IMG/VR virus record: IMGVR_UViG_3300046779_001269
Location: 112,025 to 176,024 of that record
DNA: 64,000 bases
Source: a virus
Direction: 5' to 3' (one strand)
In this document: positions 4,015 to 62,293 of the stretch, one piece after another
Layout of the letters: each line of letters begins with the position of its first letter
How positions within the stretch are numbered: the stretch's first letter is position 1
Notes under the pieces: model-generated
Seen by the model: the letters and a program-made list of their open reading frames with translations, nothing else
Told to the model about the DNA's origin: nothing
The model's database searches: none
Translations under genes and position numbers: made by a program

Positions 4015-7000
4015 TTATAGTCCTGTTCCTGATGGTAGAGCAATCGTTCTAATATCACTCAATGCTGGTGCAAATGTTGGATCATTAGAGGTCATAACCA
4101 CTTTAATTGCATACTGATAGAATGAATTAAATGATTGTGCTGATACTGGGTTGGTGTAACTTATATAATTGTCCGCAATGTTGTTTGTTCCTGGTGCGGC
4201 TTCATATTCATATGTGTCATTTTTATTGACTGAATATTTAGAACTGCCATTAACAATCGTCATCAGTTGCCAATTAGCATCTTCTAACTTCAAAGTATCT
4301 TCACGGGAAACAATCTTATAGTAAACATGTATGTCTGTATTCACTGGACGATATGCAGTGAAGAACACACGCAAGTCACCCGAATCATTTCCTGTAGCCA
4401 ATGTTACTGGTTTGGTAATGTATTTTGCATATGCATTACCACCATTTGAAGAAGTTTCACCTGTAACTACAGCTGAAGCTGATACATTTGATGAAGCATT
4501 GAATGTAATTGTTGGTGTCTTGGTGTAACCAGAACCTTCGGTTGTTACATATACACTAACAATATTTCCCATAAACACATTAGCAGAAACAAAGGCTCTT
4601 GAACCGCCTGCTGTATCTGGTGCAGAAACTGTTATGTCTGGTGAACTGATTGTTCCGTTGGCATTTGCCAAGTAACCAATACCACCATTCAATAATGAAA
4701 TGTTTGTATTTGAAATGCCCAAGTTATTGATACGGTGACGAACTGTATACACAGCCAAACCGTCATCGGCAATTATCGGACTCACTGCATCGTCTGTTGA
4801 TGACAATACAGTTTCAACTTTGAATGATGTATTTGATGCATAGTCTAATACACGTTCACCTTTATTGTCATCACATGTGATGTTTTCTGGTGATGGAGTA
4901 CCGAATTTACCTGGTGTAAATGTGTAAGCGCCGTCAGTTGAACCTGAACTGTTCAATGTTGTTGTGTAACGATACTCTACGGCTGTTCCTGGTGGTGTGA
5001 AGTCTGTAGCAGACACATTAAATGCATGGTAAATTGAATTGGCTGTTGCAGTTGCTGTGCTCTTGTCAACAGTTTTTGTTTCTGGTAGACCAGATGGAAC
5101 AACAAATGATAGACTTGGTTGTGTTGATGTTGTAAACTTACATCTGTTGATTGTGAACATCAAGGCTTTACCCTGTTCAGCACTCCATGTCATTGCATTT
5201 TGTGATTCAAACAACGAACCAATGTATGGTGCAGTACCAATCTTAGATGGATTTGTTGGGTTAGAATCGGTAACTTCTGCCTTAGATGTGGAAATCAAAG
5301 CGAAATCGTTTTGTGCAGCCATCCATAAAGTATAATCACTAGATTCGGAACGAACCACAATTGCATACATAACATCTGGGTTGATATAAACCGGAGACGG
5401 GAATGTGAATGTGGTATATGTTGATGAATCTTTGTAGTGTGGATTGTCAGACACTTTTACAGAGTCTCTATTCAAGTACACATTAGAATAATCTAAAGAT
5501 GAACCTGATGGATAACCATTCAGTGTTGGTAGAATATACAATTGCACTGGTATATTTGTTGTTGGCTTATTCTTAAAGAACACATTGATAGAGTTCAAGA
5601 ATATACCATTTGGATAAGTTAATCCATCAACAATAAATGTTTGTGCAACTGGATCATCAGGCACTGGTGGAGCAATTTTGTCCACGGTTGTCAATGTGTA
5701 ACCAGTTTGTACACCCTGTGCGTTTAACACAGTAGTCTTTGTGTTCTTTGCAGTCTGAATAGAAGCTGAATAGTTAACTTCTTGTGACTTGGTTGACAAA
5801 CTTGTTGCAAAGAATGTTGCTTCTGACCAAGTTGTTTCTGTTCCAGTATTGTACTTGAAGTCTAGGTTTGTATTGATAATTGTTCTATCATCCAAACGCA
5901 ACACTCTTTGTCCTGTATGGAACTTATTGGCTGGTAAATAGAACACACCAGAAACTGAACCAATTTCATTTGATGAAATATCACCAATAGAATATACATC
6001 ACCACTTGCAAATGTGATTGATGTGCCTAAAGTAACAACCTTGGTTGATGTATTGTATGCGGTGATTGTTGCTGATTGACCAGGTTTATTGACAATATAC
6101 AGTTTTTTGCCTGTATAAATGTCTGTTGATTTGGCCAATGTATTCAATGTTACAGTAGATGTGGCTGTTCCTGTTGTACTGGTTTTACCAGAGTAGTGTG
6201 TCACAGAAGATAATGTACCACTTGCTGTGCTGTTCTGATAAACACCTGATGTATTGAAGAAGGCGTTAACCAATGTACCAGTTGTGTATGATGTAGTGTC
6301 TAAGTCGCCGATAACATAAAGTCTGATGCCTGTTGAATGTTTGTACACATCCAAAACTTCACCACGTTTGTAGAAAACGGAACTAGAAACATAACCAATA
6401 ATGTCACCACGATTGAATGTTCCAGTTACACTTGTTAGTTCAATGATGTTTGGTTTTCTAACATTGGATGTTACCAAGTTACCATCAAAGAAAGCATTGA
6501 GTGCAGTGTTGAATAATAATCCTGTGGCATTAAAAGACAACTGTTGTTCACGAATGTATGGTAGAATACTTACATCTGTTATGTAATTGCCAGATGAGTT
6601 TTGCATCTTCGACCAATTACCATATGTAAACTGATTTTGTTTATCATTTGTGGTAATAGTTTGTGTGAAGTTTTGGCCAATATTGTCTCTACCGCCAATA
6701 GTTGTTTCCCACTTGTTGGTTGTTACCTTCTCTGTGCCTGGAATTATTTGCCAGTTTGACACACGCAAAGTTGGATCACCATCTATTAAGTTTGTTGTGT
6801 CTGTTGCTTTGTATGATTCAACACCAGTAAACAACATGGCAGGTTCAGCTGAGTTGTCGATCCAATTGTCCATTGGAGGTGTAATCTCTAGTGTACCTTC
6901 ACTCTTTACTTGACCGAATGGGTTGGCACTGATTGTGCGACTTGCCAAGGTTTGTTTGATAACAGTTTCTTCTGTGTAAGGCAAACTAAACAACTGTGAT

Positions 7001-48394: not shown

Positions 48395-48624
48395 GTGTTT
48401 TGTTGCAGGTTTACAACAGTAATACTTTAGTAGTAATAACAGGCGATTGCTCGTTCAACCTCCACCCACATCTCCTTGTCATAGGCGATTCCTATCAGTT
48501 TCTCCTTGACCCAGTATCGTTCCAACCATACTGTATATTTGCCTACTCTGGTGGGTGTCCATGCGAACGGAAAGCGTTCCCTGTGTTGACCAATCTGGTA
48601 GACTATCTTATCCTTCCACCGCAT

Positions 48625-48906: not shown

Positions 48907-49096
48907 CGTTTATCATCCTATTAATATGGTCCACTGTCTCACTACATTCTAATGTATCACCGTCAAACAATCGAACATATGAACGAATACCATGCCATTG
49001 AGAACTCGTACCAGCCTCAGTGATTCTAGCAACATTATCAGGTGCAACCAAATGGGTGATATAACCACTACTTGTTATGGTTGTTAGTTTAATCAT
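48899..49096 (-). CDS. hypothetical protein (FlbD-like pattern)
   Basis: MIKLT...LVAPDNVARI.E......ETVDHI. Confidence 0.5.
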   Translation of the reverse strand: MIKLTTITSSGYITHLVAPDNVARITEAGTSSQWHGIRSYVRLFDGDTLECSETVDHINRMINDE

Positions 49097-49290
49097 TTTT
49101 CAATTCCGAAGTGTTTTTGTAGTGCTTCTAGATAGTTGTCTGTGCCCATGTGTAGGTTACCATTATCAATTTTTGAGTAAACACCAGCACATTCTTTTAC
49201 AATTAACTCAGCGAATTCCGTTAATCTAACATGACTAATGCAATGTTCAACCTGAGCAGCAATAGCAATTTCTTTCAATCGTTCATTCAT
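49093..49290 (-). CDS. MNERIK/FAELIV/HFGVEE family paralog 1
   Basis: MNERLKEIA...EFAELIVKECA...HFGIEK. Confidence 0.8.
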   Translation of the reverse strand: MNERLKEIAIAAQVEHCISHVRLTEFAELIVKECAGVYSKIDNGNLHMGTDNYLEALQKHFGIEK

Positions 49291-49478
49291 ATTTTAACTC
49301 CTAATTTCTCAAAGAATTCTTCGCCAACCAAATCAAACCATTCATTATATTCTTCAATCTGAGGACACCAACTCATGTGAGGTCTTGCTGGATTTCTACC
49401 GTTCATATTCCATGCTGAACCACCACAATTACATGAGTGTTTGAATGACTTGAGATTTCTAGCCTCATCAATTGTCAT
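49287..49478 (-). CDS. hypothetical protein (CxC...HxxxC)
   Basis: ATGA overlaps at both ends. Confidence 0.6.
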   Translation of the reverse strand: MTIDEARNLKSFKHSCNCGGSAWNMNGRNPARPHMSWCPQIEEYNEWFDLVGEEFFEKLGVKI

Positions 49479-49684
49479 TCTTCAACTCCAAAATGTTTCT
49501 TCACATAGTGACCAGGTGTAAAGGCTTGATATTGGTTAACAGTAGCAACATCGGCACATTCTTTGATAATCAACTCGGCGAACTTTTCCTTGAATGTGTC
49601 AAACCATTCACACCCTTGTGGAGTTATATACTCAGCATATTGTTGAGCCTGTTCAGCAAGTTGTTTAATTCGTTCATTCATCAA
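49475..49684 (-). CDS. MNERIK family paralog 2
   Basis: MNERIKQLAEQA...EKFAELIIKECA...HFGVEE. Confidence 0.85.
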   Translation of the reverse strand: MMNERIKQLAEQAQQYAEYITPQGCEWFDTFKEKFAELIIKECADVATVNQYQAFTPGHYVKKHFGVEE

Positions 49685-49941
49685 CGAAACTCCTCATAGC
49701 CTTTGCCAATACCAATATAGATTGATACTTTAATCAAATCAATGTTTATTGACCATTCATGTTCACAACGGCGTCCAATGAATATGCCAAGACTGACATA
49801 TGATTCACTTATCCATCTAAATCTAAATTTATCACCACTACCCATAATTAAGTCACCAAATATTTAATCAAAGCAGCCATAAACAACAAATAGGTAATAC
49901 CCTTACCAATTCCAAATATGGCAGCCCATGCAAATTGTAAT

Positions 49942-50247
49942 TCAAGTTGGTTCATTTTTCTTTAATCTCCTAATTTCTTTTTCCAGTTCCATGTTCTTTA
50001 TAAACAAAACGTGTGATTGTTTTTCCATCACTTTGAATTTTTCAATCAATTCATCATTGGATGGATACAAATCGGATTCAGGCCAAATCATAAACTTACC
50101 TGATTCCCAATCAAAACCGGATGTAGCCGACTTAACTTTGGTCATTGGATGGGCACCAACAGTTTGATATGGCAACTTGGTCACAATCATCACTTCATCA
50201 TTATCACGAGCGTGTTGTAACATAACTCTTAAATCTTCAACTTTCAT
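49942..50247 (-). CDS. hypothetical protein
   Basis: 101 aa; GFDWE motif, C-terminal coiled coil. Confidence 0.6.
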   Translation of the reverse strand: MKVEDLRVMLQHARDNDEVMIVTKLPYQTVGAHPMTKVKSATSGFDWESGKFMIWPESDLYPSNDELIEKFKVMEKQSHVLFIKNMELEKEIRRLKKNEPT

Positions 50248-50419
50248 TTTTCAGCTTTCATATTAACCTGTACGCAATATGTGTACATATTATTTGATTG
50301 AATGTTCTTTTGTATTCTAACACAATCTTCTAGTGTCGCCAATGGTGGAGAATAAACAACAGTTCCTCTATTGTAAGCACCATCACTAACAGACACCAAC
50401 AACCAAACTAATATTGTTT

Positions 50420-50632
50420 TCATTCTTCAACTCCGAAATGTTCTAGGATAACTTTGGACACACGGTAAGCATCTTTGAGACTGATATCGGTTCGTTTATA
50501 AAAATTAATATATGCACATTCCTGGACAATCAACTCAGCGAACTTTTCCAAAATCCAATATTCAGTTTCATCCACTAATTTCAAATTATAAATGCCAGCC
50601 TGTTCAGCAAGTTGTTTAATTCGTGCGTTCAT
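50420..50632 (-). CDS. MNERIK family paralog 3
   Basis: MNARIKQLAEQA...EKFAELIVQECA...HFGVEE. Confidence 0.85.
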   Translation of the reverse strand: MNARIKQLAEQAGIYNLKLVDETEYWILEKFAELIVQECAYINFYKRTDISLKDAYRVSKVILEHFGVEE

Positions 50633-50682
50633 TTCTTTACTCCAAACTGTTGGTTGTCAATTGAAAAAGTGGTGCTCACTAC

Positions 50683-50865
50683 TTATTTCTCAACTCGAAC
50701 ACATAAGGGCGTTTTCATAACAGTGCTCCAACGAGCATCCTCAAGAGCCTTTTGGACGACCAAAGCATTCTGCTTACACTTGGTTTCTGTTGTAAATTCG
50801 GGTCCAATGATTGCTGTGCCACCATGAGCATTAATTACAATCATCAACCAAACTACTGTGCCCAT
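50683..50865 (-). CDS. small exported protein
   Basis: hydrophobic N-terminus, F.T...C...C pattern; SD CAGGAG. Confidence 0.55.
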   Translation of the reverse strand: MGTVVWLMIVINAHGGTAIIGPEFTTETKCKQNALVVQKALEDARWSTVMKTPLCVRVEK

Positions 50866-50897
50866 ATCAAACTCCTGTTTTATTACTGTATGTGTAT

Positions 50898-50926
50898 ATT
50901 ATACAACCAAAATCAATTTGAGTCAA
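50898..50926 (-). promoter_or_regulatory. sigma70-type promoter TTGACT-17-TATAAT
   Basis: -35 at 50926-50921, -10 at 50903-50898. Confidence 0.65.
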
Positions 50927-50927
50927 T

Positions 50928-51164
50928 TCAGCAAAAAGTATTACTTTTCTCCAACTCCACTTCTCGTTCAATATAGGTTTTTGTTGCCATCTTTAACACA
51001 ACTGCGGCGCTATGACGCCACATATCCTCACGCATACCCAAATAACTCAACCCCAGTGCCTTGAAAGCATTATCAAGTCCATCGTAGTCAAGTGTAGGTG
51101 CCGCAAGATGAAACTCTTTAGCACGGTGCTTAAACTCTTCCCAGGAACATTCCAGGGTGCTCAT
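50928..51164 (-). CDS. hypothetical protein
   Basis: translationally coupled to paralog 4 by ATGA. Confidence 0.6.
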   Translation of the reverse strand: MSTLECSWEEFKHRAKEFHLAAPTLDYDGLDNAFKALGLSYLGMREDMWRHSAAVVLKMATKTYIEREVELEKSNTFC

Positions 51165-51475
51165 TCTTTAACTCCGAAATTTTCCATAAGTTTCAACGCC
51201 GCATCTGGATAGTCCAAATCGTCAGTTAGGAAATCAGCACACTCTAGCACAATCAACTCGGCGAACTTTTGTTCAAACACATCATTACAATCATCCACAC
51301 GGTTTTCTAGTGTAAGAGCATACATTCTAGCCTGTTCAGCAAGTCTACGAATTCGTGCTGCGGCCAACGACTTATTACGAACCTTTACAAACGCATCATA
51401 GTTTTCTTTGGTGCCTATACCATAACCACCATCACCTGCATGTATATCACTGCCTGCTTTAATTCGTTCGTTCAT
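51161..51475 (-). CDS. MNERIK family paralog 4 (N-terminal insertion, duplicated RI block)
   Basis: MNERIK-[~34 aa]-RIRRLAEQA...QKFAELIVLECA...NFGVKE. Confidence 0.8.
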   Translation of the reverse strand: MNERIKAGSDIHAGDGGYGIGTKENYDAFVKVRNKSLAAARIRRLAEQARMYALTLENRVDDCNDVFEQKFAELIVLECADFLTDDLDYPDAALKLMENFGVKE

Positions 51476-51729
51476 TCTTCAACTCCGAAATGTGCCTTCA
51501 TCAAGCCTGTTACGGCTTCTAATGTTTTTAAGTATGTTTGTCGGTCATAATCTGGAGGAATATCCGCATTACTAGCGTGAGCAATCTTTTCCATGATTTC
51601 CACACAATAGAAACATTCCCCTACAATCAACTCGGCAAACTTTTCCTGGTTCACATAACGATTAGCAAACGATCCATCAATTGATTCTTGTGCGCATTGT
51701 GCCAACAGTTCTTTAATTCGTTCATTCAT
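51472..51729 (-). CDS. MNERIK family paralog 5
   Basis: MNERIKELLAQC...EKFAELIVGEC...HFGVEE. Confidence 0.85.
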   Translation of the reverse strand: MNERIKELLAQCAQESIDGSFANRYVNQEKFAELIVGECFYCVEIMEKIAHASNADIPPDYDRQTYLKTLEAVTGLMKAHFGVEE

Positions 51730-52297
51730 GTTTTACTCCATACATCAACATCATGGCATCCAGCAAACAATCATCAATTGGATTATGTTTGGTAATTTCC
51801 ATCTTTGAATTCCAACCTGGATAATCCACATCAGTATAACCATCTTGTGTGTTGTATAGAAAATCAACAGCAGTTCTTACATCACGCCAACGATTGAAAT
51901 ACCATATTGGTGTCAATCCACATTGTTCTTCAATATCATCTAACACCAATTGGTCTAAGTTACCACGAGCCCACACCCAACACTTTGGATCATTCTTTGA
52001 TTCTGCCCATTTACGCATGGCTTCATAACCATCCTCAAACACACAATCAATCTCATTGGGCACAAATGAAACCTTTTTCACATTGTCGCATTGTTTCTTC
52101 CACCATTCCATAGTGGACTTACCCATGTGCCGGTTCAATCGTGTATGTTGGTCTTTAACATCAAACTTGGCATAGAAAGCATCATCACGCATTTGTTGTG
52201 GTGATGGCTTTTCATCAGGATTGAAATAGATAGCGGCCATTGATAGAATGACCGAATCAGATTTCTTACCAAGTGTCTCAACATCAAAGACAAACAT
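51722..52297 (-). CDS. DEDDh 3'-5' exonuclease (DexA-like)
   Basis: FDVETLG, WARG..D, WRDVRT, HNPIDDC..D. Confidence 0.8.
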   Translation of the reverse strand: MFVFDVETLGKKSDSVILSMAAIYFNPDEKPSPQQMRDDAFYAKFDVKDQHTRLNRHMGKSTMEWWKKQCDNVKKVSFVPNEIDCVFEDGYEAMRKWAESKNDPKCWVWARGNLDQLVLDDIEEQCGLTPIWYFNRWRDVRTAVDFLYNTQDGYTDVDYPGWNSKMEITKHNPIDDCLLDAMMLMYGVKHE

Positions 52298-52611
52298 TAT
52301 ACATTTCCTAATCCAATTCTTGAATAACCAGTCATCACCTTAACTTCCGGATACTTCTTTGGTTTATTTGGCCAGTCCCGTGGGTCTACTGTTTCTCCAG
52401 TTAGTTCATATCTAAAGTCAGGATCATAAACCATGTGACCATATGATTTTGGAATTACTTTACCATCTCTATAAACGAATATACACCCACGTTGCATACA
52501 GAATGAAGTTCCTCTTTCAGTCCATACATTACCATTCACCGTACCAATGTATTTGACTACATTGCCTTTGTACATTTCATCAATGGCTTCATGCCAATTC
52601 ATAAATCCCAC
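52297..52611 (-). CDS. hypothetical protein
   Basis: 104 aa ORF in packed operon. Confidence 0.55.
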   Translation of the reverse strand: MGFMNWHEAIDEMYKGNVVKYIGTVNGNVWTERGTSFCMQRGCIFVYRDGKVIPKSYGHMVYDPDFRYELTGETVDPRDWPNKPKKYPEVKVMTGYSRIGLGNV

Positions 52612-52787
52612 TCACAGGTTGCAAACCAAACAGCTGACGGAACACTTTTTGTGTTTTCATAATCTTCAAGAAATGAAACCATAAATTCATACTCAAGTCC
52701 ACATTCTCTTGCCCATGCAAGAGTTTTCAGTAAACCATCAACCTCATTCAACTTTTTTGCATATTCATCATTTATATCGGTCATCAT
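52599..52787 (-). CDS. hypothetical protein
   Basis: 62 aa, ends A..EWDL. Confidence 0.55.
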   Translation of the reverse strand: MMTDINDEYAKKLNEVDGLLKTLAWARECGLEYEFMVSFLEDYENTKSVPSAVWFATCEWDL

Positions 52788-52914
52788 TCGCTCGCAACAA
52801 TAAAACCCATGATAACAGTTACCATGGCCAGTTCATATTGATTATACATCAAAGAGATTGCCAACACAATAGTGGCGAACAATAAGTACCAAAATTTAAT
52901 TGCGTTTTCATGCA

Positions 52915-53112
52915 TTAACTATAATCTCCTTGCAAGAACGACCACACATAATCAATAACACTTTGACGTTGTTTATCTGTGCCTTGATAAACTTCAAGTG
53001 GTGTTTTCATTCCAAAATGCCAGTTTGGACTTATCCACCATTGTTCAACCAATTCTTGGCGACCAAGCAATGATAACAACCATTTATCAATATCTGATTT
53101 AACAAATGTCAT
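52915..53112 (-). CDS. Xre/MbcA/ParS antitoxin C-terminal-like domain protein
   Basis: LLG..ELVEQWW.SPN.HFGMKTPLEV.......V..YV matches the W...PN..(L/F)G..TP.E pattern. Confidence 0.5.
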   Translation of the reverse strand: MTFVKSDIDKWLLSLLGRQELVEQWWISPNWHFGMKTPLEVYQGTDKQRQSVIDYVWSFLQGDYS

Positions 53113-53393
53113 TACAACCTCGCATCATTCAAAATGAAAAACGGCATATCATCAATCCAAACATCAATCGAAATGCCAGCGGCAAACATAAAGTCATGTT
53201 TGTTCTTTCGTGAAGTAAAGTATATCGCCTCAACTTGGTGTGCGAGATACTTCACAACTTCATCACCCTCAGCAGGTGTTCTCATGGTAACAACATACAC
53301 CTTATGACCATGGCGTTTTGCAACATCAATGAATGTGTCCCAAAAAACATTGTCTCTGGTATAAGTGTTATCATAGTCCAAACTCAGATTCAC
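53112..53393 (-). CDS. minimal HAD-family phosphatase
   Basis: LDYDNT (DxDxT), VVT.R, K, WIDD. Confidence 0.7.
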   Translation of the reverse strand: MNLSLDYDNTYTRDNVFWDTFIDVAKRHGHKVYVVTMRTPAEGDEVVKYLAHQVEAIYFTSRKNKHDFMFAAGISIDVWIDDMPFFILNDARL

Positions 53394-53794
53394 AACAATC
53401 TCGCAAACAAGTGGTCAATGTTATATTCAAACCGTGCGGCCATTTTGCCCAACACCTCATCAGGTACATTATGGATATTTCCAAACTGTCCTTGTGCCAA
53501 TAGAACCTGTGGTTTAATCCCAAACTCTTTTGCAATGTCAAAGTAAGGCAACAACTCAAATGCTGTGGTGAATGTATTGGACACCACAACAGATTGTCCC
53601 ATATTCAACATGGATTTGGTTTTATCTTGGCACCATTGGTGTGCTTCTTTGATACGAGACATATCAAATTTGTATTCATCACCATCCATCCAAAACTGGT
53701 CAGTTTCAACATGCCAATACCAACCAATCAGGTTCTTTGCAATAGTGGACTTACCTGAACCAGGCAAACCACGAATCAATACCAAGCCTGTCAT
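53390..53794 (-). CDS. P-loop kinase (AAA_33 / PNK kinase-like)
   Basis: LIRGLPGSGKST, ETDQF, AHQWCQ, VVVSNTFT, NIHNVP. Confidence 0.8.
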   Translation of the reverse strand: MTGLVLIRGLPGSGKSTIAKNLIGWYWHVETDQFWMDGDEYKFDMSRIKEAHQWCQDKTKSMLNMGQSVVVSNTFTTAFELLPYFDIAKEFGIKPQVLLAQGQFGNIHNVPDEVLGKMAARFEYNIDHLFARLL

Positions 53795-54198
53795 ACTAAT
53801 TCAACCTTTGCACAAAATTTATTTTTCCAACTACGGTATGCCAAACGGACAAAACCAGGTTCTTCATGTCGCATACGGTCTTTGGTAACCATAACCGCAG
53901 CTGTGGTACCAATAAACAATGATAATGCACCAATGATTATAAAGAAACCGATTGTTCCGCTTTCTAAGATATAACCAAGAAACAACCAACCAATTAAATT
54001 GCCTATGGAGTATAATGCAAAACCACCAAACGCCAAAACAAAAGATGATACAGCTAAAAACCAGAATAAACCGTACATAACATAACGAATATATGAACAA
54101 ATGTCCGTTGAATCATATACACGGCTGCCACCATGGTCAACACCAAAGTTGGCCAACTTGTAATGCCAAGAATCTTTTTTCAATTGAAATGTTTTCAT
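53791..54198 (-). CDS. membrane protein
   Basis: SWHYKLA, DICSY.R, two TM helices, K.KFC. Confidence 0.65.
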   Translation of the reverse strand: MKTFQLKKDSWHYKLANFGVDHGGSRVYDSTDICSYIRYVMYGLFWFLAVSSFVLAFGGFALYSIGNLIGWLFLGYILESGTIGFFIIIGALSLFIGTTAAVMVTKDRMRHEEPGFVRLAYRSWKNKFCAKVELV

Positions 54199-54301
54199 TT
54201 TACTTCCTTACTATAAAGCCAACGGCGAAATCTTGTTGATACTGTGGTTGCAACATTCACACCAATAATTACAACCACTAACATAATCAAAATAGTTTCA
54301 A

Positions 54302-54517
54302 TCATTCTTCAACTCCGAATTGTTGTCTAATATATCCACCAGCAGATTTGCCATTGGTTGCTTTATGATGTGTTTGGTCCGCAAGATAACTACATTCTTT
54401 AATAATCAACTCGGCGAACTTTTCTAAAAATACATCCAGTTCTTTATAGTTGAGGTCAAAGAAATTGCCATGGTGGTTGTTAGCCTGCATAGCAAGTTTT
54501 TCAATTCGTTCGTTCAT
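54302..54517 (-). CDS. MNERIK family paralog 6
   Basis: MNERIEKLAMQA...EKFAELIIKECS...QFGVEE; start at 54517. Confidence 0.85.
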   Translation of the reverse strand: MNERIEKLAMQANNHHGNFFDLNYKELDVFLEKFAELIIKECSYLADQTHHKATNGKSAGGYIRQQFGVEE

Positions 54518-54521
54518 AATA

Positions 54522-55406
54522 TTAACCACAAATTGTATACTCAGCAAGGTTACGCCAATTGGCACCTGCATTGGCACGGATCTTGGTAACTTGGATCAAG
54601 GTACGCAGCGACAACTCTTTCACCTTGTCTTGCAATTCTTCAATCAATGCAATGGCATCATCTTTGAATTGTTTGTTGGTTGTAGGCATGAATTCACCAG
54701 ATTGGAGAATAAAACGCATACGCTCAACCTTTTGTTGTGTGGTCATGGACAGGTCCACGGCCATAGAGCGTGTGATAATTGCTTGGTCAATTTGTGTTGA
54801 CGCCAAATTGGAGATAAACACCACACGGCCTTTGAATTCAAAGGTTGTAGGCAAATCTTCGTCTTTGATATCGGCACGCCATGAAATGATACGGCGTGAA
54901 TAGGAATCCAATGCACCTTTCAACAGGTTTAAGGATACTGGATCTTTCAATACGGAATCACAATCATCAAACACAATCACGCCATCTTTGTTTTCATACA
55001 ACAAACGGTACAAACCTTTAGGTGTAGAATAACCTTTGACAACAACGAATTTGTTTTTGGCTGTCTTGGTGCCAACTTCAAACGAATCGTCCAGAATGGA
55101 CATATCTTTGAAACCATTGGCTTCTAGTGTTTTGGTCACGGTATAAGACTTACCAAGACCACCAGGACCAGTGATAATAACAGAGGGTTGAGCACCTTTG
55201 CACAACATGGTTACCATGTCACCAACGAAACCAAAACGCTCATTGATAGAGAATCGGGATTCTTGTGGTGCGGACGCTTCAGCGGCACTACCTTGCACAC
55301 CTGCCTTACGCAACACATAATCCATATGCTCTTTTTTGGTGCGCTTAACAGTTTTGCCGTTAATGGTTGCAACATATTTGCCGTTTACGAATGTAACCTG
55401 TGTCAT
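54522..55406 (-). CDS. AAA+ ATPase
   Basis: GPGGLGKS, VIVFDDCDSV, NLLKGALD, FEFKGRVVFISN. Confidence 0.8.
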   Translation of the reverse strand: MTQVTFVNGKYVATINGKTVKRTKKEHMDYVLRKAGVQGSAAEASAPQESRFSINERFGFVGDMVTMLCKGAQPSVIITGPGGLGKSYTVTKTLEANGFKDMSILDDSFEVGTKTAKNKFVVVKGYSTPKGLYRLLYENKDGVIVFDDCDSVLKDPVSLNLLKGALDSYSRRIISWRADIKDEDLPTTFEFKGRVVFISNLASTQIDQAIITRSMAVDLSMTTQQKVERMRFILQSGEFMPTTNKQFKDDAIALIEELQDKVKELSLRTLIQVTKIRANAGANWRNLAEYTICG

Positions 55407-55432
55407 GTGTGTCCTAATCAATCAATACAAGT

Positions 55433-55480
55433 ATTCTAACACAACCACGCAAAATGGCAACCTAATACTTTAGTTCTCCA
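55433..55480 (-). promoter_or_regulatory. 16-bp-spacer early promoter with upstream palindrome
   Basis: TGGAGAACTAAAGTATTAGG-TTGCCA-16-TAGAAT. Confidence 0.7.
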
Positions 55481-55496
55481 TTGTGGAGGTCAACTA

Positions 55497-55694
55497 TTAT
55501 ACTGCAACACCCGTAGCAAGGTGGACGGTGGCGGGACCAAATAGGACTCTGGTAGTCAACCAAACAAGGTCTCCGTCTAACCCCTGACCGTCCAGGTGAC
55601 AGATATCATCGTCCACATTCCATGGTTGACCCAATAGGAAACGGAGTGCCGAATCCAATGCAAAATCTTCGGCATATGATAATTCTAAATCCAT
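55497..55694 (-). CDS. hypothetical protein
   Basis: 65 aa; SD AAAGGA. Confidence 0.55.
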   Translation of the reverse strand: MDLELSYAEDFALDSALRFLLGQPWNVDDDICHLDGQGLDGDLVWLTTRVLFGPATVHLATGVAV

Positions 55695-55704
55695 GGTTTA
55701 TCCT

Positions 55705-56001
55705 TTAATGTAGTTTTCGTGTGGTATCAACACCATTCAAAGCATCAACAATTTGTTGTTGTGCTTCTTCAGGCATATCCATAATATCTTCAACACTCAA
55801 CAATCGTGCTTCTGACATAAGTTGGCTAGATGTTTTGCCTGCAAACATTTCCATAATCTCCGCTTTCAAGGCATCCAATTCTTCTTGTGTGCCTTCAAAA
55901 TGGTCAAAACAACCAGGTGCAAACACAATCTCTGGTATTGTATCGCCTTTATCTTCAATATCTTCTGCCACTTTTTCAGCAATTTCTTTTTTACGCCACA
56001 T
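55705..56001 (-). CDS. acidic hypothetical protein
   Basis: FAPGCFD.FEGTQEELD. Confidence 0.65.
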   Translation of the reverse strand: MWRKKEIAEKVAEDIEDKGDTIPEIVFAPGCFDHFEGTQEELDALKAEIMEMFAGKTSSQLMSEARLLSVEDIMDMPEEAQQQIVDALNGVDTTRKLH

Positions 56002-56426
56002 TAGATTCTCTCCACAACAATCTTATCACCCATATCATCACCAAAGGACATATTTTCATAATGCACTTTGACCAAGCCTTTACGCTCTAATGATACAATA
56101 ATCAAAAATGAAATCAATTGGTTGGTCCTATCGGTAATCATATCAACACTTTCACCACCACCAAGACCTTCAGCACCAGCCAACATTTCAGCTATTAACA
56201 ATAGGTCACTAAATCGTTCATTAGGTTCACCATCATTGGCTTCAACCACATCCATTAGATTGTGCAAATCAGTATCGGATAATTTCTTAAAGAAATCACC
56301 AACCTGCATATATGGCCGTGCCATCAAATCAACTGCCAATAACTTCGTGACAGCCAAACAATCCTGTGATTGAATCACTTTGGCGTGGTCAACCGAATAA
56401 CTACTCATATCAAACATATCATTCAC
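56001..56426 (-). CDS. hypothetical protein
   Basis: 141 aa; SLERKGLV. Confidence 0.6.
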   Translation of the reverse strand: MNDMFDMSSYSVDHAKVIQSQDCLAVTKLLAVDLMARPYMQVGDFFKKLSDTDLHNLMDVVEANDGEPNERFSDLLLIAEMLAGAEGLGGGESVDMITDRTNQLISFLIIVSLERKGLVKVHYENMSFGDDMGDKIVVERI

Positions 56427-56679
56427 CTTTTATACCAAACAAAGCATCACCAGCATCCTTAGGGAATGTGGAACCATACTGTGCAACACGCTCAGTATCT
56501 TCATCAACATTCAAACCTGGTACATAACTGATATAATAGCGAATGCCATCATATTCATCATCAGTTCTTGCAATACCAACACATCCAAACATATTGGTAA
56601 ACCATAAGATATCCAAAACTTTCATAATATTATCCTCAAAGGGGCTACACCGTGGATTATAGACCAACTATAAACCTTG

Positions 56680-57045
56680 TCAAGCCCCAACATATGGTAA
56701 AAAATCATCTGGTATCATTACATTCAAACTAACACCCTTGAACATGGGACCAATCTGGTCGGGTGTGTAACCGGCAAGACCACAACCAATAGGGGTGAGT
56801 TGAAATGTTAAATGTGGGTGATTCTTTGCATATTCTATGAAATGATCCACGAATATCTTAATGCTAGGTAATGGTAATGTTTCAATATTGGCATCTTTGG
56901 TTGGTATACCATACGAATCGCCTTGCATACCAACACCTTGACCATAAATGGCCCCCCTGTTTTCTAATGCCCATTTGGCGGCACCAGCACCGTGGCGACC
57001 AGCAAGATTGGAACCAAACACAAAAATGATTCTTTGTTCATTCAT
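56680..57045 (-). CDS. macrodomain-like phage protein
   Basis: IFVFGSNLAGRHGAGAA, SYGIPTK, TPIGCGLAG. Confidence 0.65.
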   Translation of the reverse strand: MNEQRIIFVFGSNLAGRHGAGAAKWALENRGAIYGQGVGMQGDSYGIPTKDANIETLPLPSIKIFVDHFIEYAKNHPHLTFQLTPIGCGLAGYTPDQIGPMFKGVSLNVMIPDDFLPYVGA

Positions 57046-57340
57046 ACATTAACTCCAAAACGACCTTCATCATAGGCCTTATACCAACCCTCGATCCATT
57101 CATACCAGTAACAGAGTATGTCTGGGTGAATGCCATGATGTGGATTGTGTGTTTGCGGCAGACCATTCATACAAGCGATATAGCCTTGTCCTTTGGGAGA
57201 ATTTATTAGAATCGCCATTATTCAACTCCAAAACAGTTTTTTAACAAAACTGAAAATAATCATAAAAATGGTAAAGTAAGCCGCCGCACCAATCATCAGT
57301 AGGTACGCAACAGCCCACCATCCTGCCTTATCACCTTCAC

Positions 57341-57583
57341 TCACGATTCAACTCCGAAATGTTCTTCAATATATTCCCTTGCCGAGGCACATCCATTGGC
57401 TTCTTTCATATACCCATGTGTTTCATATCCAACAGCCGCAACATCACACATACGCATACATTCACGCACAATGGACTCAACGAACTTTTCCAATTCATCG
57501 TTGTCAAATACAGTTAGTCCATCATCGTCATTATCAGGATGTTTAAGAGCCTGTTCAACAAGTGCTTTAATCCGTTCGTTCAT
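57341..57583 (-). CDS. MNERIK family paralog 7 (an in-frame upstream start at 57685 is possible)
   Basis: MNERIKALVEQA...EKFVESIVREC...HFGVES. Confidence 0.8.
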   Translation of the reverse strand: MNERIKALVEQALKHPDNDDDGLTVFDNDELEKFVESIVRECMRMCDVAAVGYETHGYMKEANGCASAREYIEEHFGVES

Positions 57584-57958
57584 CTTGATAAATCTTCCTA
57601 CATTCTTACCGATTTTGACAATTTTTAGTTCCTGACCTATGGTAATACCACCATGTTTGTCAAGCGTTTTAAATTGTTCGTTCATACTCTGATACCAAAC
57701 TCAATTAATAAAATGATTAGAACGGCCATAATTAACAATCTGGATCAAAATCATGCCATTCGGCCTGCTCTGTTGGTTGACCATCATCCAAATCATTTTC
57801 ACGGATGTATTGGTTCATACCGTTGGTGTAACCTTCCTCATACTGAGCAAACTCAGCAGTATCAAAATCGTATGGGTTCAGGTTATCGCCAGTGGTATAA
57901 CCATCCACATAACCTTCGTCATATTGTTTTGTCATCAATTCATTCATAATAATCTCCA

Positions 57959-58183
57959 TTAGTCCAACAAAATCATGTATTCTTGTGGGAAGTGTTTGCG
58001 AAACCAATCCAAACCTTTCCTTACAGTCTTATAATCACCCATCATATTGGCGCCGCTGATACAATCATACACGGCAACAGCATCAGGTTCCAAGATACAG
58101 GACTGGCCAGAAAATGGATTCTTTACTTCAACTGGTTCTTTATCAAAAACCATACAATCAAAGGGTAATTTGCGCTCTGTCAT
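57959..58183 (-). CDS. hypothetical protein
   Basis: NPFSG....L...AVAVYD.I.GA...GLDWFR..FP.EYMILLD. Confidence 0.65.
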   Translation of the reverse strand: MTERKLPFDCMVFDKEPVEVKNPFSGQSCILEPDAVAVYDCISGANMMGDYKTVRKGLDWFRKHFPQEYMILLD

Positions 58184-58557
58184 TTCTTGCCTTTCAATTT
58201 CAAATATTCATCATCATCTAAATCACGGAGGCCATTGCATGGTTTATTAATGGCCTTTTGTGTTGCACGGTTGCCTAGTCTAATCAACCCACAACGGCCA
58301 CAATATACAAACATACCCTTGGCATTCATGGTACGGTTGAAATTGTGGCCTTGCATCAATCCCACCCAACTGCTTTGGATGCACCAACCAATTCACCATC
58401 GGTCATGGTTGACTTTAATTCAGCAAATCGGTGAGCAAAGTGTTGACCAACTTCACCACACATCCACTTGCTGCCAAGTGGTTCAAAACGGTTCATTTGC
58501 AACAACTGCTCATAACTGGCAGTATCAATAAATGCTTTCATTTCCTGTTCTGTCATA

Positions 58558-58950
58558 TTACCACCACGAATCATAATAAACGGCATCACCTTCAGCAATG
58601 GCATCACGAGCAGCCTGAATGAATTTCAAATCATTGCTCAGTGATTCATTATCTGGTGGATTATCACCAAAGAAGAAACCAGTGGTTTGGGGCAACATAT
58701 TATTCAATAGGTCAAACATTAAGGCATCCAAATCATGTGGATACAACCGAACCTTCACACAATTAAATGATTGTGCTGTACCGCCTTTGTTACGGTACAA
58801 CTTCTCCATCCAACCATGCAGGTCGTGGTGTTTACGCCAATACCACAATTCTTCAATATCACGCTCACGACCATCTTCATCACCACGGATGGTTAGGTCA
58901 TCAATCACATCATTGGCAGCAACACGCCAAACAAACATATCTAAACCCAT
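58558..58950 (-). CDS. conserved phage early protein
   Basis: MGLDMF...YWRK..DLHGWM...LP.T.GFFFG...YYDSWW. Confidence 0.7.
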   Translation of the reverse strand: MGLDMFVWRVAANDVIDDLTIRGDEDGRERDIEELWYWRKHHDLHGWMEKLYRNKGGTAQSFNCVKVRLYPHDLDALMFDLLNNMLPQTTGFFFGDNPPDNESLSNDLKFIQAARDAIAEGDAVYYDSWW

Positions 58951-59024
58951 TTTATTCTCCATATTGTTTCTCTGAAAAGACAAAAGTGGACTTATTGGCA
59001 TTGCCACCTTTGGTCACTCGGTTA

Positions 59025-59537
59025 TTACTTCAACACAATACCATCGTGGTTGTATTTCTTCTTCAAGAATGCCAAGCAGGCTTCTGGTGTAGGACGGGCA
59101 GCTTCTTGCTTGCCATTCCACATTGCAACCCACTTATTACGGTCAGCACGGTAGAACACGGTGCCATCAGGATGCACGGTCTTGCTGCCTTTGACAATAG
59201 AACCAACCTTGGTATTGCCAACTTGGGAAATAACCAGTTTTGCCTTTGCCATGCGCTTGGCAGCAGGTTTGGCTTTCATTGCCTTAACTGGTTTTTCATC
59301 ACTCACCACAATAACAGGTGATTTAGCTTCAAACTTAGGACCAGTCAATGGACCGCACCATGGGAAGAAACCAACGGCGGTCTTGTCTTTATTGTCTAAC
59401 GCATCATTCATATCAAGGCCACACATACCCCATTGGTCGGTTTCTGCATTGTACCAACGATATGCCTTGCCTTGCTTGTCACGGTCGACCAAATACAAAG
59501 CCGATGCCGTAGGGTTACCAGAAGTCACAAAATCCAT
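59025..59537 (-). CDS. hypothetical protein with Lys/Ala-rich linker
   Basis: SD GGAG; follows promoter at 59560. Confidence 0.7.
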   Translation of the reverse strand: MDFVTSGNPTASALYLVDRDKQGKAYRWYNAETDQWGMCGLDMNDALDNKDKTAVGFFPWCGPLTGPKFEAKSPVIVVSDEKPVKAMKAKPAAKRMAKAKLVISQVGNTKVGSIVKGSKTVHPDGTVFYRADRNKWVAMWNGKQEAARPTPEACLAFLKKKYNHDGIVLK

Positions 59538-59559
59538 AATATCTCCAACTAAAACATCA

Positions 59560-59621
59560 ATTATACACGATTCCTAGGTTTTGGCAAACTAATACCAAAG
59601 TATTACAACCAATCCGGTCAA
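59560..59621 (-). promoter_or_regulatory. 16-bp-spacer early promoter with extended upstream module
   Basis: TTGACCGGATTGGTTGTAATACTTTGGTATTAGT-TTGCCA-16-TATAAT. Confidence 0.7.
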
Positions 59622-59812
59622 GTATTATTTTGCTGCAAATCGCTCCATCACGGTTGGTGTATACAATCGCTCGGTCAACAGGTTGTGCTCGGTTGCACTC
59701 AATACCTTACCGCATTGGGTTTGTGCCAATACATTCAAACCATAATTATTGAATTTATTGCCTGACAATTCAAACAACATCATATCCCAAAAAGTTGTAT
59801 TCACATTTTCCA

Positions 59813-60058
59813 TCATTTAACTCCAATTCCTAATTTGTTTGCCTTGAACCATTCCAATTGTGAAACGGCTTCATCGTGCCCATGCCATGCCAAATTATCC
59901 TGACATTCCCTTACAACCAACTCGGTGAACAAGTCCAGGTCAAAGTGCCGGGTCACTGATACCGACTTAATAGTAGGATCAACCTCAGAACTAAAATATT
60001 CTTGGTGCCGTTCTATATGAGCCTGCTCATACAGTTTTTTGATTAATTCATTCATCAT
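59813..60058 (-). CDS. MNERIK family paralog 8 (divergent)
   Basis: MNELIKKLYEQA...DLFTELVVREC...LGIGVK. Confidence 0.7.
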   Translation of the reverse strand: MMNELIKKLYEQAHIERHQEYFSSEVDPTIKSVSVTRHFDLDLFTELVVRECQDNLAWHGHDEAVSQLEWFKANKLGIGVK

Positions 60059-60883
60059 TCCGCTCCATGATAATAACGGGTTTCGGTAATCCATTCCATA
60101 CGGTCGGAATAATGAACTCGTTGTTTTGCAATGAAATTATCGGCCTTTTCTTCGGTTTCAAAACAACCCATATCTGATACTTCATCAGGACAATTTGGAT
60201 CGACCATTGTCACATAATATACAACCTTAGATTTCATGCCAATTCCTGTTTTGCATTAATCAAACCATTCAAAAATTCTACCTGCTTCTTTTTTGGTAGT
60301 TCACCTACAATATACACCAATTGTGATAGTAGGTACTCACCAGCATCATCCGAGGATTTTGTTACCTCAATGAAATGCTGGACTTCTACCTCAATGGTAT
60401 CAACGGAAAACTTACCTCGCTTCACAATTCTTCCATTTCCTCGTCTGTTACCTCGACCAACTCAGCCTGAAAACCCAATTGGTTGATAAAGAATACCAAA
60501 TCCTTGGGTGTGATACGGTGCGAATCGTACCAAAGGGTACCATCCTGGTCAACAACACGAATATAATCACCACAACCCAATGAATTGTGAACAACTTTTA
60601 ATTCTAATTTTGCCATTATTTTTTTAACTCCAAATAAGTTTCGACTGTAAATGCTGACAATATCATTATATTCAATATAACATAACCTGTTATAATCACA
60701 TAAAATAGAATCATTGCTTTACCTCAATTTCATCCAAAGCGTCATAGATGCAAGTATCAGCGAATGATAACAAACGCTCTACCTCATCCAAACCGTTCTT
60801 GCCGGCATAATCGTATACCTCAGCCAATATCATCTGAGCATATTCCAACTTTTGCACCAATTTATCTTTGGTAATCTTATCCA

Positions 60884-62195: not shown

Positions 62196-62293
62196 ATTAT
62201 ACACAAGCCCCAGTCCATGGCAAGCCAATAGTTGACCGGATTGGTTGTAATGAAAAAGTTTACAGTTGCCAAAACCTGCCGGTGTGTTATACT
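62196..62293. promoter_or_regulatory. back-to-back divergent 16-bp-spacer promoters
   Basis: minus: TTGCCA 62223-62218 with TATAAT 62201-62196; plus: TTGCCA 62266-62271 with TATACT 62288-62293. Confidence 0.7.

Follow-up and report, generated by a model that had tools for sequence, protein, structure and literature searches.

At the end of a 176,024-bp phage record in IMG/VR (IMGVR_UViG_3300046779_001269), a stretch of 64,000 nucleotides (nt; positions 112,025 to 176,024 of the record, numbered here from 1 and called the window) contains eight small genes that have the same three blocks in common and two unrelated segments between them. How such a family comes about, what keeps its blocks constant, and what its proteins do are the questions that this locus raises. 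A preliminary description of the window had suggested that the blocks serve as recombination anchors at which the variable segments, or whole intervening genes, are swapped, giving a small helical scaffold with diversified loops that might bind host or defence proteins. The overall explanation that fits best, and that is probably right, is a large family of acidic three-helix proteins of ~70 amino acids (aa), shuffled at block anchors by UvsX-type exchange, equipped with a translational coupler, and perhaps acting as early binders. The phage that carries the eight-member array is T4-like and comes from a lake.

The eight genes are minus-strand open reading frames (ORFs) that all align as one family with the plan N block, variable segment 1 (V1), central (M) block, variable segment 2 (V2), and C block. 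The N block has 12 aa (type MNERIKxLAEQA), the central block 11 aa (type EKFAELIVxEC), and the C block is of type HFGVEE; in the window, V1 measures 11-56 aa and V2 19-40 aa, and the eight do not vary at M1 and N2, at F and E in the central block, at E-C, and at G in the C block. Member 1 (65 aa) occupies 49093-49290, with its N, M, and C blocks at 49255-49290, 49189-49221, and 49093-49113; member 2 (68 aa; 49475-49681; N 49646-49681, M 49556-49588, C 49475-49495) encodes a protein that is seen in exactly the same form on 18 contigs; and member 3 (70 aa) lies at 50420-50632 (N 50597-50632, M 50516-50548, C 50420-50440). Member 4 (104 aa; 51161-51475; M 51239-51271, C 51161-51181) has an extra N-terminal module between two N-block copies, in that an insertion of ~35 aa follows the first half of the N block and precedes the second copy; the same insertion is found in homologues. 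Member 5 (85 aa; 51472-51729; N 51694-51729, M 51613-51645, C 51472-51492) overlaps member 4 by ATGA, member 6 (54302-54517; N 54482-54517, M 54392-54424, C 54302-54322) has 71 aa when read from an inner ATG, and member 7 (114 aa; 57341-57685; N 57548-57583, M 57458-57490, C 57341-57361) begins with a 34-aa N-terminal extension, its core starting at 57583. Member 8, with ~81 aa, is the most divergent (59813-60058; N 60020-60055, M 59903-59935, C 59813-59830). The eight paralogues and three constant blocks of the preliminary description are borne out by the ORF calls and the alignment, and so is its account of paralogue 4 as a member with an insertion and a second N-block copy.

A profile built from the eight members has exactly eight matches in the whole record, all within the window, and a six-frame motif scan detected the blocks nowhere else in the genome, apart from an orphan C-block remnant and two C-block-like ends of non-family genes. 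A repeat search recovered families of 6-8 copies for each block. The exact DNA identities of 28, 23, and 23 nt described earlier between paralogues proved correct to the base, with no extension on either side; given that an exact 23-nt repeat has a chance expectation of ~1e-6 in 12 kb, these repeats reflect homology and not chance. No V1 or V2 cluster is common to any two members in the window, which agrees with the earlier statement that the variable segments are unrelated between members.

Whether the variable segments travel together was addressed with 419 unique proteins, which were cut at the blocks and had their V1 and V2 segments clustered separately. The 265 V1 clusters and 289 V2 clusters obtained in this way occur in 400 observed combinations. 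V1 is at least 70% identical in 1,230 protein pairs, and V2 falls below 30% identity in 1,157 of them; conversely, 202 of the 231 pairs with V2 at least 70% identical have V1 below 30%. Independent reassortment, which the preliminary description had put forward as a check of its proposal, is therefore what these pairs display. Complete four-combination squares of V1 and V2 number two, and for members 3 and 7 all four combinations exist (in the window, in P0034/P0058, and in P0035). For member 6, the V1 cluster has 37 different partners among the V2 clusters, and the V2 has 8 among the V1 clusters. Chimeras of window modules (m, member) are among the best matches, comprising V1(m1)+V2(m2), seen in P0097/L082b, V1(m8)+V2(m6), seen in P0025, and V1(m2)+V2(m7), V1(m3)+V2(m7), V1(m7)+V2(m3), and V1(m4)+V2(m5). 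At the nucleotide level, ~50 gene pairs on different contigs have one module that is 70-100% identical, with the other module and both 300-nt flanks at random level. V1 and V2 are thus separately mobile mini-cassettes, rather than passengers of large crossovers.

The modules are also real coding sequence under purifying selection, since the ratio of nonsynonymous to synonymous divergence (dN/dS) is 0.11 for V1 (14 pairs) and 0.15 for V2 (30 pairs), at a proportion of synonymous differences of 0.44-0.62. These values bear on the idea that the variable segments result from ordinary divergence, or from hypermutation resembling that of a diversity-generating retroelement, with no exchange at all. 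The mutually unalignable segments of the window would be in line with it. However, modules of up to 100% nucleotide identity stand beside unrelated partners, modules differ in length and have the low dN/dS just given, and no reverse transcriptase (RVT_1) is present in the 176-kb genome, all of which makes this idea barely credible. A diversity-generating retroelement proper was rejected on the same absence of RVT_1, and on modules that are length-variable and unalignable rather than point-mutated.

Where the exchanges take place can be read from near-isogenic relatives, that is, those with 92-99% nucleotide identity. L001, a 177-kb relative of ~95% identity, keeps member 2 alone, and the other seven lie in indels or replacements; member 8 is within a 416-nt indel, and the N blocks of members 5 and 2, with 23 nt in common, bound an indel of 2,026 nt. 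In L104, the flanks of which are 99.0% and 98.4% identical to the window, the sole difference is a replaced V2 of member 5, with breaks at 51613 in the central block and at 51493 in the C block. L082, with flanks of 92-95% identity, contains two chimeras, L082a with V1(m2)+V2(m3) and L082b with V1(m1)+V2(m2), and L086b has V1(m4)+V2(m5) (L082 positions 104-325 and 1064-1246; L086 positions 5711-5977). Three-way alignments place the parental switch within the central block in all three of these chimeras. Each of the three combines neighbouring window members and joins the V1 of the downstream gene to the V2 of the upstream gene, a polarity that is that of a duplication or excised-circle junction, not of a simple deletion, and that is to be taken as a lead, not a result. 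In addition, six independent assemblies with the identical member-2 protein have an alternative array between the exonuclease gene and a 59-aa gene.

When all distinct homology breakpoints are considered, 12 of the 29 fall in blocks (±10 nt), which cover 7.8% of the region (binomial p = 8e-7), and the three that lie in mid-gene are all in central blocks. The data show that homologous recombination swaps V1 and V2, as mini-cassettes of ~50-100 nt, among genes, genomes, and paralogues. The proposal that the repeats act as recombination anchors has thereby held up for the segments, which reassort by crossovers located in the blocks at nucleotide resolution, and also for the swap of whole intervening genes, as exemplified by the 2,026-nt indel bounded by two N blocks.

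The relatives all come from short-read metagenome assemblies, in which repeats are classic sites of mis-assembly, and the mosaics could in principle be artefacts in which paralogues or co-occurring strains were mis-joined at the repeated blocks. This is very improbable, because the exact identity between paralogues does not exceed 28 nt, shorter than the final k used for the assemblies with k127 and k141 in their names, because chimera P0097 recurs in four samples and the alternative array in six assemblies, and because many chimeric proteins are found on 5-11 contigs, some of them of 120-367 kb. The breadth of the pattern, which spans 400 combinations, argues against it as well.

What keeps the blocks constant? 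Codon usage in the blocks was compared among 175 genes from ~80 unrelated contigs, with the V segments of the same genes as background. Single codons dominate the blocks to a degree not seen in the background, namely CGA (87% vs 15%), AAC (84% vs 29%), CTT (73% vs 16%), AAG (89% vs 28%), GCC (83% vs 22%), GAG (92% vs 21%), TTG (89% vs 30%), and GGA (96% vs 22%), and the choice depends on position, Glu being encoded by GAG at one block position and by GAA at another. In random inter-locus pairs, the share of identical codons at identical residues is 0.71-0.84 in the blocks against 0.45-0.51 expected, and even within recently shared V1 modules it reaches 0.59, below that of the blocks. These comparisons of codons show that the three blocks are conserved as nucleotide sequence, beyond the protein. 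The comparison of synonymous sites in blocks and loops that the preliminary description had called for thus comes out in its favour, the synonymous sites of the blocks being far more conserved than codon usage predicts.

For the C block, such conservation has a role in translation to refer to. Its DNA has GGAG separated by 7 nt from an ATGA in which stop and start overlap; the third position is 91-96% fixed at its Gly, Val, and both Glu codons, and the stop is TGA in 153 of 175 genes. An ATGA end is present in 141 of 173 members, compared with 23% in control frames, and in 127 of these 141 an ORF of 35 aa or more starts at the ATG, this ORF being another member in 48 of the 127. The junction motif (TTYGGAGTTRAA..ATG) occurs at 11 minus-strand junctions in the window. 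Judged from these sequence features, the C block is a Shine-Dalgarno (SD) plus ATGA coupler, by which each member would hand ribosomes to the next gene, and this gene may be another member or unrelated cargo.

The motif is not confined to family members in their usual frame, as it also terminates a 40-aa gene, where it is read in a different frame (57216-57231), and is found at non-family genes (57043-57058 and 60614-60633), on the minus strand in each case. The orphan C-block remnant is a start-less frame of 17 codons (50629-50679, minus strand) with a C-block-like end and an ATGA overlap onto member 3. A few other ORFs of the minus strand touch on the blocks. The 63-aa gene before member 1 (49287-49478) has a C-block-like peptide and an SD at its end, and the non-family ORF at 57732-57950 starts with an N-block-like MNEL and resembles the start of member 8 in its DNA. 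An unlisted mini-ORF of 33 hydrophobic codons (54204-54305) starts within the ATGA overlap that ends member 6 and stops just before the gene for a 135-aa membrane protein (53791-54198); it likely encodes a small membrane peptide translationally coupled to member 6.

Given the coupler, it may be asked whether the blocks are kept for expression and folding alone, with recombination as a by-product of identical stretches. This is possible, but unlikely on present evidence. In such a view, the N and C blocks constitute an initiation and coupling signal, possibly the operator of a common translational regulator, and the structural core is formed by the central block, under codon constraints specific to each position. 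An SD plus ATGA is demonstrable in the C block, its junction motif is found also at non-family genes and in another frame, the N block comes directly after the start codon and may be similarly constrained as an initiation region, and the block residues occupy hydrophobic core positions in AlphaFold2 models. The central block, however, is mid-gene, has no start or SD role, and is left without such an expression explanation, yet it is held on the rare codons AAG, TTC, GCC, GAG, and TTG. Pairing of the N and central blocks in the RNA through complementary hexamers was also considered and rejected, there being no compensatory covariation, and the swaps are real whatever maintains the blocks. The earlier use of block DNA identity as evidence for anchors consequently stands for the central block and not for the C block, which is also explained by its SD/ATGA role.

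Several points weigh against exchange at selected anchors as the full account of this family. Because the coupler also accounts for it, the DNA identity of the C block is by itself no evidence for an anchor role, and translation signals would suffice to explain why the N and C blocks are conserved at synonymous sites, with no need for selection for recombination. Of the 29 breakpoints, the 17 outside the blocks lie at ordinary boundaries of genes, and those indel ends that are in N and C blocks likewise fall at such boundaries, which in T4-type hyperplastic regions are sites of breakage in any case. That recombination is ongoing within a single population is deduced from assembled contigs, and the sample of homologues is skewed towards modules like the eight queries. 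Finally, there is no fold match above noise and no known relative to constrain the function of the protein.

With block-anchored exchange as the preferred reading, we infer that the simplest mechanism is general homologous recombination at anchors of ~20-35 nt. The genome has a phage RecA/UvsX-family gene; as for homing endonucleases, it has no HNH_3 match, and its GIY-YIG match is below threshold and far from the locus, and no dedicated recombinase is among the common neighbours of the family at 80 loci. General UvsX-type recombination would carry out the exchange during mixed infection or between sister genomes. Crossovers within the blocks would exchange V1 and V2 cassettes, and whole genes between two blocks would be gained or lost likewise. 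Continual exchange of the anchors, together with the better spread of modules that have consensus anchors, would keep the anchors uniform. Three compatible causes have been considered for anchor uniformity, namely homogenisation by exchange, better spread of consensus-anchor modules, and expression constraints.

How widespread is the family? At least 7,899 relatives were found by profile in a protein collection clustered at 90%, and an exhaustive library yielded 7,043 cluster representatives at 50% identity with E <= 1e-3, 721 of them with E <= 1e-10. The relatives retrieved are all 'hypothetical', and none has a Pfam domain. For the eight members, there is no Pfam-A match below E = 0.04 and no PHROGs v4 match at E <= 0.01, with noise alone at E <= 10, and the block motifs were found in no paper of the literature searched. 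The copy count in related phages that had been proposed gave 287 copies in 81 viral loci, with up to 12 per 13-16 kb; tandem arrangement is common, with ATGA overlaps, and a genome has 8-17 copies. The carriers are early hyperplastic regions of uncultured aquatic T4-like and large myoviruses, where the usual neighbours (80 loci) are AAA_5/AAA ATPases, the small chain of ribonucleotide reductase, a 5'-3' exonuclease, a metallophosphatase, and a T4-type RNA ligase. No cultured phage with the family was revealed among 50,697 phage records when these were searched with the region (megablast) and with member 2 and a consensus-like member (tblastn), the sole weak match (E = 0.1) being a spring-water metagenomic phage. 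The 185,579 prokaryote species genomes of GTDB contain 17 loci, every one on contigs of metagenome-assembled genomes (MAGs), and these are probably mis-binned phage. One MAG, 'Haliscomenobacter sp.', has contigs of 148 kb and 183 kb (L092, L100) with family members, which are probably phage genomes binned as bacterial. In sum, variable segments that are not co-inherited, block synonymous divergence that is not at background, and a family that is not a characterised one are what was found at the three points where the preliminary description could have failed.

The surroundings of the array are informative about when its genes are likely to be used. T4-type genes in the record comprise rIIA, rIIB, a UvsX/RecA-family recombinase, AAA genes, and nucleotide-metabolism genes, and the array is flanked by exonuclease and AAA genes and by rIIA, as in an early region. 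From 48.3 to 62 kb in the window, small genes follow one another on the minus strand, preceded by several strong promoters that are sigma-70-like (TTGCCA-16-TATAAT and variants, on the coding strand), and this part is therefore regarded as an early, hyperplastic-type region. A sigma-70-like early promoter at 50898-50926 (minus strand) is upstream of a 60-aa gene and member 3, and further similar promoters are on the minus strand at 62223, 61839, 61723, 59587, 56683, 55460, and 48394. A palindrome-like element, AATACT-N-GTATTA, is common to those at 62223, 61839, 61723, 59587, 55460, and 48394, just before the -35; it may be a cassette resembling the promoter-early stem-loops (PeSLs) of T4-type phages or a regulator site. 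The breakpoint at 48428, common to the contigs of nine relatives, adjoins an early promoter, and at about the same position (~48428) L105-L109 and L112, which encode the identical member-2 protein, have an extra 141-aa gene with a weak DUF3307 match between the 65-aa gene and rIIA. No match to the octamer of T4 late promoters, TATAAATA, exists in the window, where 3.8 would be expected, so that this motif is of no use for timing expression here; presumably, the late-promoter motif of this phage differs from that of T4.

As for the proteins, they are acidic, with a median net charge of -6. AlphaFold2 predicts three helices for member 2 (3-19, 26-48, and 56-64) with a predicted local-distance difference test score (pLDDT) of 92.7, and for member 6 (3-12, 24-50, and 59-67) with a pLDDT of 83.6. 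Helix 1 contains the N block, the middle part of helix 2 contains the central block, and helix 3 ends with the C block. A three-helix scaffold, and with it the small helical scaffold of the preliminary description, is thus supported by two models whose V modules are unrelated. If the bundle runs up-down-up, the topology would put the V1 and V2 loops at opposite poles. In 77 of 419 members, a second Cys follows the invariant block Cys at +4 (CxxxC), with a further Cys later in V2 in 48 of the 77; along with the conserved C-block His, these residues could make up a metal site in the subset. Foldseek of the two models against PDB gave best E values of 2.1 and 2.8, and the best Z of the VIA-align fold search, 5.3, is within noise for helical models. 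Helical parts of large clostridial toxin glucosyltransferase domains appeared as weak fold matches and were set aside (E ~3, not significant), as were PDB sequence-profile matches, which are designed helical repeats alone (E ~0.006) and a composition effect, leaving no PDB relative. BFVD and ESM Atlas returned uncharacterised members of the same family alone (uncultured Caudovirales), and a search of ESM Atlas by features found no usable named cluster. A homodimer prediction for two copies of member 6 scored 0.39 against a mark of 0.42 and is used neither for nor against binding.

It is tentatively proposed, with rather less than even confidence, that the proteins are expressed early and bind host or defence proteins. 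This guess draws on the early context, the acidity, a fixed core with two independently assorting surfaces, the purifying selection on the modules, and their extreme diversity; the conserved helices would be the core, and the two variable ends independent recognition surfaces towards host or defence proteins. The more ambitious picture, of a combinatorial library kept across the phage metapopulation, in which V1 and V2 surfaces, thousands of each and at opposite ends of a fixed three-helix core, of early anti-host or anti-defence binders are continually re-paired through anchors selected for exchangeability and cargo genes are coupled to them, has to be called doubtful.

Another possibility is that the proteins are polymorphic, injected internal proteins, whose N block would resemble the capsid-targeting sequence of T-even phages. 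The N block is indeed a conserved, amphipathic start of 12 aa, and (I/L/V/M)-x-E motifs, the form of T4 prohead-protease sites, are present in it in 250 and 217 of the 419 members. A motif of this type is nevertheless too short for specificity, the N block is found on no other protein of the genome, and 15 of 250 members have extensions ahead of it. Moreover, T4 internal proteins are basic, whereas this family is acidic with its median charge of -6, the genes stand behind early sigma-70-like promoters among early genes, and the central and C blocks are left unexplained. Taken together, an internal-protein role is improbable.

The family matters in several respects. With ~7,000 clusters at 50% identity and a protein of ~70 aa, it is among the largest wholly unannotated phage protein families. 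It offers an unusually clean case of 50-100-nt coding cassettes exchanged at 20-35-nt anchors between near-identical wild phages, as well as a concrete case of synonymous sites apparently held for DNA identity. Since annotation pipelines and protein clustering mis-handle such mosaics, the family merits a profile from the blocks alone. If the proteins are binders, the family would amount to a ready scaffold library of natural origin, from which freshwater phages would likely draw anti-defence or host-takeover functions.

Swapping of variable modules at short junctions that are conserved, or as mini-cassettes between conserved sequences, with combinatorial diversity as the outcome, is also the principle of CdiA-CT and Rhs polymorphic toxins and of pilin/VlsE-type conversion. 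In those systems, one module is swapped from silent or orphan cassettes, within one genome. In contrast, the copies of the present family are all complete genes, and two modules reassort independently, across a phage metapopulation. The internal proteins of T-even phages are likewise small and polymorphic, with a short constant N-terminal block (PMC3012670); the present family differs in being acidic, in its early context, and in having two further constant blocks.

Closer in design are the gp38 adhesins of T2/T6-type phages, in which hypervariable segments lie between conserved glycine-rich motifs (Trojet et al. 2011, PMC3157838). In both cases, conserved core motifs separate interchangeable variable segments within one ORF, and the likeness is an analogy of design alone. 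There is no relation in sequence or fold and no Pfam match, and the present family lies outside the tail-fibre locus. The role of gp38, an adhesin of the virion encoded in a single copy, is known; the proteins described here are multi-copy, early, acidic, and predicted to be three-helix; fixation of anchor codons at the DNA level is shown for this family.

The closest parallel in mechanism is provided by PeSL cassettes, short conserved motifs repeated through T4-type hyperplastic early regions. These act as expression signals too, and through them small non-essential genes are inserted, deleted, or replaced between close relatives (Arbiol et al. 2010, PMC2839356; Comeau et al. 2014, PMC4122927). 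Recombination between copies with the same three outcomes between close relatives also occurs in this family, and the circle or duplication polarity of the three chimeras recalls the mini-circles that exchange between nearby PeSL copies can give (Arbiol et al. 2010, PMC2839356). PeSLs, however, are intergenic and combine promoter and terminator, whereas the anchors of this family are codons inside ORFs, without a stem-loop, and carry an SD/ATGA translational coupler instead of a promoter-terminator. The blocks that serve as anchors belong to the coding sequence of a single protein family, so that not just genes but also halves of genes are shuffled by recombination. For T4-type hyperplastic regions, shuffling of modules was already known from intergenic PeSLs and gp38 motifs, and here it operates inside a multi-copy early gene; in other words, a new, very large protein family carries a known type of phage modular shuffling.

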